Shown here one piece after another: positions 20,033 to 24,294 of a DNA stretch of 64,000 nt. Made by a program: the position numbers and the translations under genes. The stretch's first letter is position 1. Each line of letters opens with the position of its first letter. The stretch spans positions 32,001-96,000 of the forward strand of contig JBGAHS010000001.1 in NCBI GenBank assembly GCA_044226015.1. Reading direction: 5' to 3'. Below the pieces are notes generated by a model that was not told the origin of the DNA, did no database searches, and worked only from the letters and a program-made list of their open reading frames with translations. This DNA comes from Candidatus Obscuribacteraceae bacterium (GTDB lineage Bacteria; Cyanobacteriota; Vampirovibrionia; Obscuribacterales; Obscuribacteraceae).

Positions 20033-20114
20033 CTTTGTATTGATTCTCTGAGTCCAATTTTTTTTCTTTTTTTTTCTGTGTATTCGTTTTGCAGGAAACC
20101 TTTATGGAGAAAGC

Positions 20115-20206
20115 AAAAACGCACCGGCGACTGCCAGTGCGTTTTTACATCGGGTTGGTTGGGCTGGTGATTAGACTATAGATATTGGAACTGACAAAAT
20201 TGTGAC
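20115..20206 (-). ncRNA. Candidate sRNA family A, class I, copy 1 (promoter + ~55-nt RNA + terminator)
   Basis: Minus strand: GTCAC-N6-GTCAG-N10-TATAGT, then ACCAGCCCAACCAACCCGATGT, then a GC hairpin with a U5 tail. Confidence 0.65.
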
Positions 20207-20248
20207 CTGGAAGAAGAAGTGAATGAGGGGAAGTTTGGAGGAGAAAGC

Positions 20249-20340
20249 AAAAACGCACCGGCGACTGCCAGTGCGTTTTTACATCGGGTTGGTTGGGCTG
20301 GTGATTAGACTATAGATATTGGAACTGACAAAATTGTGAC
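20249..20340 (-). ncRNA. Candidate sRNA family A, class I, copy 2
   Basis: Identical to copy 1; 134-bp period. Confidence 0.65.
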
Positions 20341-20384
20341 CTGGAAGAAGAAGTGAATGCGGGGAAGTTTGGGGGAGAGAAAGC

Positions 20385-20476
20385 AAAAACGCACCGGCGA
20401 CTGCCAGTGCGTTTTTACATCGGGTTGGTTGGGCTGGTGATTAGACTATAGATATTGAAGCTGACAAAATTGTGAC
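20385..20476 (-). ncRNA. Candidate sRNA family A, class I, copy 3
   Basis: Same RNA portion; two changes in the promoter spacer. Confidence 0.65.
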
Positions 20477-20603
20477 GTGCTAAGAGATTTGGAAGTGCAA
20501 GAGAACCGCATGTCTTGTGGCAAATAAACTGACCAGATAAAACGGATTCTCTGTGTCCAATTTTCTGTGGATTCGTTTTGCAGGATACCTTTATGGAAAA
20601 AGC

Positions 20604-20695
20604 AAAAACGCACCGGCGACTGCCAGTGCGCTTTTACATCGGGTTGGTTGGGCTGGTGATTAGACTGTAGCTTTTGAAACTGACACAAACGTGAC
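20604..20695 (-). ncRNA. Candidate sRNA family A, class I, copy 4
   Basis: GTCAC-N6-GTCAG-N10-TACAGT retained with diverged spacers; the one stem change gives a G-U pair on the minus strand. Confidence 0.65.
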
Positions 20696-20800
20696 TCGCT
20701 TGGATCAAAATGTTTTGGAAAGAACAACGCACCAGCTTGAGCCGGTGCGCATTTCTACAAGTTTCCACAAAACGATCAATTGAACCGGTAAAATACCATC

Positions 20801-21700
20801 ATGAATTCATTCTGGAAAATTGTCGCTACTCTTCTTTATGCTCTGTTTTTTCCGTCAATGACTTTGGCAGATCAAATCGTAGGGCAACATTACACTCTTC
20901 CTGGAACCCAAGTTCGGGAACTTCATTCTGAAATTGTGGGCATTGATTATCGGCTATACATCAGTCTTCCGAGAGATTACGACAAAGCAAATTCTTCAAA
21001 TTATCCGGTCGTTTTTCTCCTGGATGCGAACTATACTTTTGCGATGTATCAGAGTATAGTCACATTTCTTGCTGATGAAGACGAGCTACCCCCAATGATT
21101 TTAGTGGGAATTGGCTATCGTGATGTCGAGGATGAAAAGCATGGTGCTTTGTTCAAAACGAATCGAACACGGGACTACACGCCATTTCACGTTGCCGCTG
21201 GAGGGTATGGTCCGGAGTTCGATAAGCAATCAGGTGGTGCTAACCGCTTTCTTGATTTTATCGAACAAGAACTCAAGCCATTTCTTGTGGCCAATTTTCG
21301 AATCAAGAAGGATGATTTCACATTGGCAGGCAATTCATTTGGAGGATTGCTAGGTAGTTATGCTTTGCTATCTCGCCCAGGTCAGTTTCAGAGGTTCCTC
21401 ATAGTTAGCCCTTCCCTTTGGTACGATAAACGCAAGATGTTTTCGGTGGAAAACAGTTTTCTTCTAAGCCACAGGGATTTGCCTGCACGTGTTTTCTTTT
21501 GCGTCGGGGGTGACGAACGAGCCAGTCGAGGATTTACCGAGATGGTGGGCGACCTGAAGTCGTTCGTTGGCAAATTGCAAGCACAGAAGTATCCCAAATT
21601 TCGAAGTCAGCTTTGGATAGCGCCAGATGAAGGGCACCACAGCGTATTTGCGCCCGCAGCGATGCGAGGGATGCGTTGGCTGTTCTCAAACTCAAAATGA
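20801..21700 (+). CDS. Alpha/beta-hydrolase esterase (IroE/Fes-like), exported
   Basis: YPVVFLLDA, RTRDYTP, GNSFGG nucleophile elbow, SPSLW, EGHHSV; signal peptide. Confidence 0.85.
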   Translation: MNSFWKIVATLLYALFFPSMTLADQIVGQHYTLPGTQVRELHSEIVGIDYRLYISLPRDYDKANSSNYPVVFLLDANYTFAMYQSIVTFLADEDELPPMILVGIGYRDVEDEKHGALFKTNRTRDYTPFHVAAGGYGPEFDKQSGGANRFLDFIEQELKPFLVANFRIKKDDFTLAGNSFGGLLGSYALLSRPGQFQRFLIVSPSLWYDKRKMFSVENSFLLSHRDLPARVFFCVGGDERASRGFTEMVGDLKSFVGKLQAQKYPKFRSQLWIAPDEGHHSVFAPAAMRGMRWLFSNSK

Positions 21701-21701
21701 A

Positions 21702-21876
21702 TGAATACGCCGCAGTCGAGGCTTGTTCTTCTCAGAAGCCTGCGCTGCGGCGTATTCACATCGGGTTGGTTGGGCTGGTAAGAAGATACTATTGCCAATT
21801 TGTGGAATTTTTGTGCGCAAGAATGTGGGTTACACGTACACAAATCTGTATTGACTTAGCTAGGTTCGCGCTAAAT
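21702..21876 (-). ncRNA. Candidate sRNA family A, class II, copy 1, with its conserved upstream region
   Basis: Same core ACCAGCCCAACCAACCCGAT, a different 14-bp-stem hairpin, TAGTAT -10-like box; ~100 bp upstream shared with the 23.7-kb copy. Confidence 0.6.
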
Positions 21877-21959
21877 TTAATCTCCGTGACGTACAAAGGT
21901 ACAATTCTGTAATATCTTGTTTTTATTCTCGTTTGTGGATGGCGAGCGAGGGGACGGTA

Positions 21960-23672
21960 ATGGCTGAGGGCGAGAAGGACAAATTGGTTCTTGCGGTTGC
22001 GCCGGAAGATAGCGCTAATTCCTCATCTACGCAACTTAGAAATGAGGCAGATAATGCGTTTAATGAAGCCTATTTCTCAGCCAGGCGCCTCCGCAATGAT
22101 ATTTCTGGCTTACCCCCTGAAGACAGACGCAAGTGGCTGAACGTGGAGATAGAGCTGGTTGAGAGCCAAAACCCAAAATCGCGTGAAGCAACACTTGCGA
22201 AGAGAAAAGAACAGTTTCCTGAATTGGATTTGAAGGCTAGCCAGCTTCTAGACACACTTAAAACGGCAGAAGACTTGCAAGCCCGTTCAGAAGACAAGGC
22301 TCGCAAAGAATACGCTATGAAAAAGTTTGGAACTGAGCTGGTGGCGGACTACTTGCAAGGTGTGCGTTTCCTCGGAATTAGTGAAGGTAAGAAGGACTAT
22401 TTTTCAGGTCTCTTGTCGCCGACAAAGGCAAAGTCCAGCTTGTTTCTCGATTTACCTTCGGATATGAAACTCGGCAATTCTTTGTTTTCTGGCGCAAGAA
22501 CGGATGTATCGTTAACTTCTGTTTGGGCAAAAAGAGAAGCCAGCGAGTTCTCTGCTTACCCCACCTCAGTTGACCGACTGAAACTCCACCAGGACGAGAT
22601 AGTTTCGCGATTTGATGCTATTCTAATGGGCGAATTCGGAAAATTCTTGCGGGACGATATGGCTGCTCTTTTCGGCAGCAAGTATGCTTCTGCTGACGAA
22701 AAAACTGCGTTTGTCAAACAAGTGGCAAGGCTCATGGATGGTACTGACCCTAAATCACCAACCGCACATGCCAATTATTTGCTTGCGTTGCTGATGATCA
22801 GGAATGCGGGAAGTATCGACAGGATAGATCAAGGTAGTAATGGAACATGCGCCATTCAATCGTTGGAAAAGCGATTGATCGCGCGTAACCCAGGGCTTTT
22901 GTCAGAAAAAATGGTAGACCTGATGCTAAATGATAAGTTCGAGTTTGGTACCGCAGGTAGTACTGTCTCGTTGAAGCCTGAGTGGAAGTATTCGTCAAAT
23001 CCTAATTCCTATGCATACCCACCAATAGATGGGGAACGGAATTTCGCCAGTCATGTGGCAACAATGGTATTAGCAAATGCGCGATTTGAGCTGCACAATA
23101 AAAGCTATGGCACACAACTCCGCTATGGTCAGCATGAGGGTAAAGATGCTCTTTTCGATTGTTCAGGGAAAGAACCAAAGCTGGTCTACGGAGTTTCGGG
23201 CAAGAAAGTTGACCTTGAGCCTGTTGCAATAAGGAATACGTGGAAAGGAACAGAGAAGCTGCACAAAAAGCCGGTCTCTGATCCAATGGTTAGTTTGTCA
23301 AATGTGCTCGATACTTATGAGGCTTTCACTGGGCAGAGCGCTTCGAAGATTTCGCTGCAGTCCTATGATGCGGCGCGTCTTCCAGGGTCTTTGTATCAAC
23401 TACTGACGGCAACCGAAGATGTTCGAGATAAGAGAGCTCTGGTATACAGGAACCCAGGAGAGCTAGAGGAGCAGTTATTGCAAGCAAAACAGAGAGACGC
23501 TTACCCACTTCTTTTTCAGCAGCCGGGACATTTGACCACGGTCAATTACTACGATAGTACAAGAAGACGAGCGGGTTACGACAATCAATGGGGGAAAGCG
23601 AATGACGCGAAAGGAGGGCTTTCGCCTGAGTCTTTAAATAAGTTTGGCGACATGATCGTAGTCTTTAAATGA
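21960..23672 (+). CDS. Putative papain/calpain-fold cysteine protease with an uncharacterised N-terminal half
   Basis: IDQGSNGTC (Gln oxyanion residue + Cys), PGHLTTV (His), DNQWG (Asn, cf. NSWG/NPWG). Confidence 0.6.
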   Translation: MAEGEKDKLVLAVAPEDSANSSSTQLRNEADNAFNEAYFSARRLRNDISGLPPEDRRKWLNVEIELVESQNPKSREATLAKRKEQFPELDLKASQLLDTLKTAEDLQARSEDKARKEYAMKKFGTELVADYLQGVRFLGISEGKKDYFSGLLSPTKAKSSLFLDLPSDMKLGNSLFSGARTDVSLTSVWAKREASEFSAYPTSVDRLKLHQDEIVSRFDAILMGEFGKFLRDDMAALFGSKYASADEKTAFVKQVARLMDGTDPKSPTAHANYLLALLMIRNAGSIDRIDQGSNGTCAIQSLEKRLIARNPGLLSEKMVDLMLNDKFEFGTAGSTVSLKPEWKYSSNPNSYAYPPIDGERNFASHVATMVLANARFELHNKSYGTQLRYGQHEGKDALFDCSGKEPKLVYGVSGKKVDLEPVAIRNTWKGTEKLHKKPVSDPMVSLSNVLDTYEAFTGQSASKISLQSYDAARLPGSLYQLLTATEDVRDKRALVYRNPGELEEQLLQAKQRDAYPLLFQQPGHLTTVNYYDSTRRRAGYDNQWGKANDAKGGLSPESLNKFGDMIVVFK

Positions 23673-23695
23673 GGCGATGATCAGAAAAATTGGAA

Positions 23696-23864
23696 ATGAA
23701 AACGCCACAGACAGGCTTTAAGAGCCATTACTGCGGCGTATTCATATCGGGTTGGTTGGGCTGGTAAGTAAGATACTATTGCCAAATTGTGGAATTTTTG
23801 TGCGCAAAAAAGTTGCTTCCACGTACAGCAAATCTGATTTGCCCTCGCAAGGTTCGCGCTAAAT
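23696..23864 (-). ncRNA. Candidate sRNA family A, class II, copy 2
   Basis: Direct repeat of the 21.7-kb element; the stem keeps pairing through G-U on the minus strand and the loop differs. Confidence 0.6.
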
Positions 23865-24037
23865 CTAATCAGAGTGTTCGCCGCACCAAGGCGAACGTAA
23901 CTTTGCCAATTTGTTCTGAAATTGATGCAGTCGCTGTTCGGGTCAAGCAGTTGGAAGTAGCTCTGGAATAGGATGTATGTTTTTCGCTGAATCTTAGCGC
24001 GAAGTTGAAAATCAAAGCATCAATTCTTGCTCAAAGC

Positions 24038-24129
24038 AAAAACGCACCGGCAGATGCCAGTGCGTTTTTACATCGGGTTGGTTGGGCTGGTGAATTAAAT
24101 ATAAGATCGTTAGCTGACATCTTCGTGAC
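24038..24129 (-). ncRNA. Candidate sRNA family A, class I, copy 5
   Basis: GTCAC-N6-GTCAG-N10-TATATT; same core and stem, different terminator loop. Confidence 0.65.
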
Positions 24130-24294
24130 ATTGAGGTACCACCTGCCAGATCTTCCGAAAGTTCTATCATGAGGCTGATTCTGGGCTTTTTTTTCTTTTC
24201 AAAGAATTAGTTGGGCAGGGAAGACTAAACGAGATCTCTTGCTAACTTCCCGGCGCTGTGAAATGATGCTCAGCCTGCGTTTAGAGCTAATTGT

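Follow-up and report, generated by a model that had tools for sequence, protein, structure and literature searches.

What is encoded by a short C-rich sequence that recurs seven times within some 4 kb of bacterial DNA? The question is raised by a 64,000-nt stretch (hereafter the window) from an uncultured, non-photosynthetic relative of cyanobacteria, a Candidatus Obscuribacteraceae bacterium (assembly GCA_044226015.1, contig JBGAHS010000001.1, positions 32,001 to 96,000), in which a 20-mer core lies on the minus strand in front of a series of hairpins. An earlier note, made from the letters of the window, had proposed sibling small RNAs (sRNAs) of ~55-80 nt acting by base-pairing or by titration of an RNA-binding protein. 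We analysed the window together with its own genome (G000; 8.19 Mb, 92% complete) and those of relatives. The anatomy of the units, their covariation and their synteny make it highly probable that they are sRNA genes, with a predicted length of ~60-85 nt.

All seven minus-strand occurrences of the 20-mer in the window are exact (Table 1), and none was found in 100 dinucleotide shuffles. The core is an internal near-repeat, reading ACCAGCCC-A-ACCAACCC. Five distinct window types were folded, each against 200 shuffles, and a hairpin was recovered directly after the core in every one (z = -4.9 to -7.0, 0/200 shuffles each). The core itself is mostly unpaired in all five types (mean of 84% unpaired in the final census), and the score of an intrinsic terminator is reached by four of the five type-A hairpins. 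The core had been described as invariant, and within the window it is; genome-wide, however, three of 12 copies carry C11>T, and relatives vary further past position 10. Nor are the two hairpins to which it is attached unrelated, as had been thought: types A and B share the hairpin base GAT-RT-RAA-ACGC, and copies from a second genus look intermediate. A start-stop mini-ORF (open reading frame) after the core (ATG followed by TAA, TGA or TAG) was discarded as a candidate, being missing in type C and in the copies of genomes G003 and G005.

The hairpin covaries as an RNA would. In an alignment of 13 distinct type-A rows, 95.7% of cells are paired and 8 of the 16 pairs are changed on both sides, a result matched by 0 of 500 shuffles, which the kinship of the rows can inflate. 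When the alignment was slid as a control, only 37-55% were paired. Slid controls, G-U pairs and compensatory changes favour one and the same RNA strand; the earlier note had read the minus-strand orientation from G-U pairs.

Upstream of the core the copies share a single promoter design. In the final census of 66 rows, three box-less rows were dropped as chance, and among the 63 distinct copies kept, 60 fit YAC-N5-TKYCAS-N10-TANNNT-N6/7-ACC, the other three being near-matches. A first set of 54 promoter rows had been pre-filtered for TANNNT 4-7 nt upstream, so that only the exact spacing is informative; the hexamer stands at 6-7 nt in all 54, as the earlier note had said of the window, and all 54 align to the same box design if minor variants are allowed. 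The claim of two unrelated upstream regions does not survive, since both have one direct-repeat box geometry. Position -1 is C or T in 64/66 rows, and positions -6 to -3 are variable; the RNA therefore most likely starts at the first A of ACC. Conservation begins abruptly at this pyrimidine/A step, that is, at the expected start site. A generic sigma-70 scan of the window did not detect the family promoters, which it misses because the box takes the place of the -35.

An 11-bp direct repeat replacing the -35 is typical of activation by the OmpR/PhoB family, and the Pho box of Escherichia coli is an 11-bp direct repeat that ends 10 nt before the -10. The geometry here is the same, type A boxes reading TGTCAC-N5-TGTCAG. 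Judging from promoter architecture, a response regulator of the OmpR/PhoB type is likely to activate the units from their common 11-bp box. The box pattern is commoner than its reversed control in many genomes of the family Obscuribacteraceae. Phosphate control is not supported, because the phoU operon, which includes a regulator (C11:1091781-1093968), lacks the box and PstS (PF12849) was not found in the 92%-complete own genome. A motif search returned 39 short response-regulator candidates there. In four other genera (g35, g37, g33 and g6) the box stands right after an OmpR-type regulator gene and before a small ORF of 74-85 aa (L330:2190-2438, L331, L332, L333, L334:2378-2635, L340 and L344). 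The best match of those regulators in the own genome is C1:605459 (59-67%), a candidate activator that we offer as a lead only. One of the small ORFs was searched against Pfam, with no match, and those searched by tblastn had none in the own genome. Autoregulation of, and feedback on, another response regulator, C4:388336, was rejected, neither box nor site being kept in the other homologues inspected. At two further loci (L219:1500-1620 and L260:1500-1600) a boxed promoter precedes a short leader and a terminator-like hairpin, but the core is another one; they are possibly other sRNAs under the same box.

The family extends well beyond the window. The own genome has 12 copies, nine of them exact; the other three have C11>T together with a third form of hairpin (type C). 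Of the seven other genomes of the genus, five match a 16-mer, up to one mismatch being allowed (1, 9, 9, 13 and 8 copies), and G006 holds 14 copies once its loci are read. Since the remaining two hold a core that varies after position 11, all eight genus genomes carry the family. A second Obscuribacteraceae genus, g43, carries 4-5 copies in each of its two genomes, and copy number across carriers ranges from 1 to 14. In a third genus (g38; L338 and L339), two genomes each have one divergent unit, which has the promoter of the family, a C-rich leader in which CCCAA is retained, and a hairpin; these single copies adjoin a different response-regulator gene, NarL-like by our reading. Across 104 genomes of the family, other matches are single, and those examined lack the box.

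Carriers among the relatives bear the names Obscuribacterales or Obscuribacteraceae. A wide scan of 185,579 species genomes for the 19-mer yielded 113 stretches. Once these were filtered for a -10 and a hairpin, one row from outside the Obscuribacterales was left (L106); it is without the box and was dropped. Such outside matches to the 19-mer were rejected as family members for want of the box and of the hairpin combination. IMG/VR gave one chance-like match, without box or hairpin. The chromosome of Ca. Poriferisodalis contains six copies of an unrelated repeat that includes a near-match of the core (L080, L081, L098, L099, L117 and L150), and those rows have neither box nor terminator.

Copies lie in or beside a lepA/SUFU/kinase/permease neighbourhood in G001 (one copy), G002, G003, G006, G007, G084 and G085, and in G004 they flank an acyltransferase orthologue. 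The genes between copies vary, and satellite copies occupy lineage-specific sites. The synteny marks the locus as vertically inherited, with duplication as its means of expansion.

If the units are transcribed, what would the RNAs do? We looked at genes that share the box, using a set of 6104 genes from a rough in-house caller, on which the start codons depend. Box plus -10 occurs within 300 nt upstream of 21 of these genes, against 1-6 in 20 shuffles. Eleven of the 21 belong to a class defined by composition thresholds for an acidic, polar, non-hydrophobic N-terminus (strict and loose versions were used), compared with 434 of 6104 overall (background 7%, p = 4e-8). Most class proteins tested had no Pfam match or a partial one only (no match for 10 of 17 proteins in one test and 4 of 7 in another), and the ESM Atlas gave no usable match for one class protein. 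Members in the own genome (~434 genes) include C11:1031432, C10:304555, C8:65477 and the protein at 21933-23672 of the window; they are lineage-specific, and some share an N-terminal domain joined to different C-termini.

Upstream of class genes, TTGGG, the complement of the CCCAA that is invariant in the core, ranks first among 1024 5-mers (38/434 versus 189/5670, p = 4e-7), with TTGGGT and GTTGGG among the top 6-mers. The excess is found only at -40..0 and on the sense strand, peaks at -15..-6 and amounts to ~25-35 genes; the 60 loose-class genes with TTGGG fall into 51 families. The top 200 predicted duplexes include 35 and 34 class genes for two cores, against 14-30 for 14 shuffles. Seed k-mers scored over all genes against a Markov model reach only a modest z of up to ~3. 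The strongest predicted duplex involves the leader of C8:65477 (-28.0 kcal/mol), where two sites match the two core halves. Its orthologue in G007 (43% identical) keeps the double site at -19.8, and distant homologues in non-carriers score -4 to -13. Four G000 paralogues with otherwise unlike leaders hold U/G-rich complementary stretches (-21.8, -19.4, -18.1 and -12.4 kcal/mol), and among 573 orthologue pairs the best-kept site pairs look like class genes. In G005 and G003 (L266 and L267), a boxed gene without an own-genome orthologue has GATGGGCTGG in its 5' leader; this motif complements the 5' core and lies just before an AGGAG.

From this we somewhat favour a scheme in which one response regulator is the activator of the RNAs and of part of the protein class, and in which the RNAs damp translation by pairing of their 5' core to ribosome-binding regions. 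Each unit would be a separately transcribed small RNA gene of 60-85 nt, switched on by an OmpR/PhoB-type regulator at the 11-bp box. The unpaired C-rich 5' end would bind U/G-rich sites of the TTGGG type near start codons and so block translation. Its predicted targets are ~25-35 lineage-specific members of the acidic, polar N-terminal class, upstream of whose genes the same box is enriched. The resulting circuit would be an incoherent feed-forward loop in which tandem duplication, by changing the copy number, sets how much RNA is made. A wider version is rather improbable: a regulator found throughout the Obscuribacteraceae would switch on a large undescribed class with an acidic polar N-terminal leader and, in a few genera, also a growing set of sibling RNAs that shut translation of the class down again through TTGGG at the ribosome-binding position, with copy number as dose control; the class might be cargo of an unrecognised export or loading route. 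Secretion cores of the VirB4 (PF03135) and FlhA (PF00771) types were not found in the own genome.

Several results weigh against pairing with this class. The box list and the first list of targets were already known when the class was defined. A pooled k-mer test of the whole core in G000 against 1500 shuffles was not significant (empirical p 0.06-0.5), and CCCAA is present in 25% of shuffled cores. In a 1.2-Mb sample of the carrier G007 (952 genes), the excess did not clearly recur, at low power: it is absent in the strict class (TTGGG before 1/66 genes versus 23/886 others), and in the loose class the difference is twofold and not significant (6/137 versus 18/815, p = 0.12). A low-power set of 260 genes from other carrier loci has no TTGGG excess. 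Site conservation over the 573 orthologue pairs gave rho 0.22, inside the range of 40 shuffles although at its upper edge, three of them being higher. Two individual targets were abandoned: the site at C4:388336 is not conserved in genus orthologues, and scorable homologues of C7:528454 lack a site. Because of these points, base-pairing on the N-terminal class is no more than suggestive.

The question is then which other role could account for the same units. They could be sRNA genes under the same regulator whose unpaired core titrates an RNA-binding protein with RRM or KH domains, without pairing to mRNA; of the two modes named in the earlier note, pairing has suggestive support and titration stays beside it as the rather improbable one. 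A highly conserved internal near-repeat and a copy number of 1-14 would suit a dose-dependent sponge, RRM-type proteins are encoded in the own genome, and neither site conservation, nor the G007 replication, nor the pooled-core test gave a clear pairing signal. Each RNA, however, offers a single core and no array of sites, and the complement of the core is enriched, in a position- and strand-specific manner, upstream of co-regulated class genes. A sponge of the CsrB/RsmZ type in particular was rejected: there are no repeated GGA loops, and a search with PF02599 found no CsrA in the 92%-complete genome. It is distinctly less probable that the RNAs pair with one or a few other targets and that the TTGGG excess is a ribosome-binding trait of the class, unrelated to them. 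TTGGG does sit at the Shine-Dalgarno position, other G-rich words are enriched too, and the replication in G007 was weak; set against this are the four paralogues that hold complementary stretches in unlike leaders, and a 0.8-Mb sample (631 genes) of G069, a genome where no family member was found, which shows no excess (1/76 versus 13/555; low power).

Two other readings fare worse. That the units act as DNA, as regulator decoys or operator sites or as a repeat like a miniature inverted-repeat transposable element (MITE) or a repetitive extragenic palindromic (REP) element, with no functional RNA, would agree with the near-identical tandem 134-nt units and the lineage-specific satellites. We consider it very improbable, since the compensatory changes and G-U pairs point to one RNA strand and conservation starts exactly where transcription is expected to. 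The main locus is syntenic across two genera, with copies there in most carriers, which disfavours a MITE or REP, the outcome that the earlier note had named as fatal to its proposal; no terminal inverted repeats or common flanking duplications were evident by eye in the 12 own-genome copies. Tandem promoter-RNA units also resemble antitoxin arrays in outline. A role as antitoxin or guide RNAs in toxin-antitoxin or defence systems is nevertheless hardly credible: apart from housekeeping-type flanks, the genes between and beside the copies differ among genomes, variable spacers are absent, and the lone viral match had neither box nor hairpin.

Do the units belong to a family already described? 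None could be assigned, as the earlier note had also concluded: a search of the window against Rfam gave no match at the gathering score, the eight weak ones lying far below the cut-off. In kind they would be sibling sRNAs, related units that come in multiple copies (12 in G000) and bring a promoter and a terminator apiece. The closest promoters are those of the csRNAs of Streptococcus (CiaRH regulon), for which passages of the published accounts describe a hexamer-N5-hexamer-N10-(-10) arrangement, a start 7 nt on and a preferred C just before it (PMC3091779), together with multiple copies in tandem and at distal sites, a terminator hairpin, and an unpaired stretch with complementarity to translation-initiation regions (PMC3091779, PMC4211561). 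The Obscuribacteraceae family shares the spacings, the multiple tandem and distal copies and the terminator hairpin described there. It differs in its box (YAC-N5-TKYCAS, as against TTTAAG-N5-TTTAAG for CiaR in those passages), in a core that is not anti-Shine-Dalgarno or anti-AUG, in the lack of an Rfam match, in reaching up to 14 copies where 2-6 are given, and in phylum.

In anatomy the closest parallel is the FopS family of Bacteroides thetaiotaomicron. According to parts of its description, there are 14 paralogues, in which a conserved, single-stranded 5' seed precedes one terminator hairpin; they repress a group of mRNAs close to the start codon and bind the RNA-binding protein RbpB (PMC11697453). 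Unpaired seed, single hairpin and similar copy number recur here; the FopS promoters are presented in those parts as canonical sigma-A ones that lack a defined response-regulator box. The two families also differ in sequence, targets and phylum, and no Rfam match was obtained, the presence of a FopS model in the Rfam copy not being established. LhrC of Listeria monocytogenes is described, again in part of its source, as a LisRK-dependent multicopy sRNA whose C-rich single-stranded motifs block translation and which does not need Hfq (PMC4132741). It resembles our family in two-component control and C-rich pairing, both predicted here, whereas that account gives it 111-114 nt, two stem-loops and three UCCC motifs in place of one hairpin and a CCCAA-centred 5' core. 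Since its box and core are unlike theirs and no model in Rfam fits it, the family is a member of none of these: it is a new family of a known kind, with a promoter built like that of csRNA and with the anatomy and copy number resembling those of FopS.

A literature search, with supplements (where an sRNA catalogue might sit) outside its scope, found no paper on this RNA family, and within the same scope it and Rfam returned no described sRNA family or regulon for the Vampirovibrionia (Melainabacteria). For this non-photosynthetic sister group of cyanobacteria, the work defines a family with box, start, seed and candidate targets, which could be tested with a heterologous reporter, culture of the organism being unnecessary. 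Should the targeting hold, RNA family and box would delimit one functional class within the many hypothetical proteins that these 7-9 Mb genomes encode, and the csRNA/FopS design, here with up to 14 copies, would, if our reading is true, have had an independent origin in another phylum.

Table 1. Predicted units, promoters and intervening genes of the repeat region (window coordinates; core, exact 20-mer match)
Feature	Positions	Strand	Details
Predicted sRNA copy 1, type A	20108..20168	-	core 20149-20168, from inferred +1 at 20168; 16-bp hairpin; U-rich tail
Promoter copy 1	20169..20207	-	GGTCAC-N5-TGTCAG box, 10 nt, TATAGT, 6 nt
Predicted sRNA copy 2, type A	20242..20302	-	core 20283-20302; within 134-nt tandem unit
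Promoter copy 2	20303..20341	-	box + TATAGT
Predicted sRNA copy 3, type A	20378..20438	-	core 20419-20438
Promoter copy 3	20439..20477	-	box + TATAGT
Predicted sRNA copy 4, type A	20597..20657	-	core 20638-20657
Promoter copy 4	20658..20696	-	box + TACAGT
Type-A-like hairpin without core or promoter	20723..20754	-	possibly decayed copy
Esterase gene between copies (PF00756)	20801..21700	+	converges on copy 5
Predicted sRNA copy 5, type B, long hairpin	21694..21779	-	core 21760-21779
Promoter copy 5	21780..21818	-	GCGCAC-N5-TTCCAC box, 10 nt, TAGTAT
570-579-aa protein between copies, no Pfam match	21933..23672	+	acidic polar N-terminus; converges on copy 6
Predicted sRNA copy 6, type B	23685..23765	-	core 23746-23765
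Promoter copy 6	23766..23805	-	box + TAGTAT, 7 nt to +1
Predicted sRNA copy 7, type A	24031..24091	-	core 24072-24091
Promoter copy 7	24092..24130	-	TGTCAC-N5-TGTCAG box, 10 nt, TATATT

Within the window, copies 1-3 form a tandem of 134-136-nt units. The esterase gene was not seen between copies in the relatives examined. Contig depth over the 134-nt unit is 45 versus ~12 in run X1 and 73 versus ~13 in run X2; depth does not equal copy number, and these values suggest ~4-6 copies of the unit at 20106-20373, where the assembly shows two near-identical ones. In G004 and G002 (L005, L008 and L016), sibling copies occur as convergent pairs with adjoining terminators. The own genome also encodes, on C7 (L347:1459-1698), a cyanobacterial-type Hfq of 79 aa whose best match is Ssr3341 (E 4e-9) and which is also near Asl2047.

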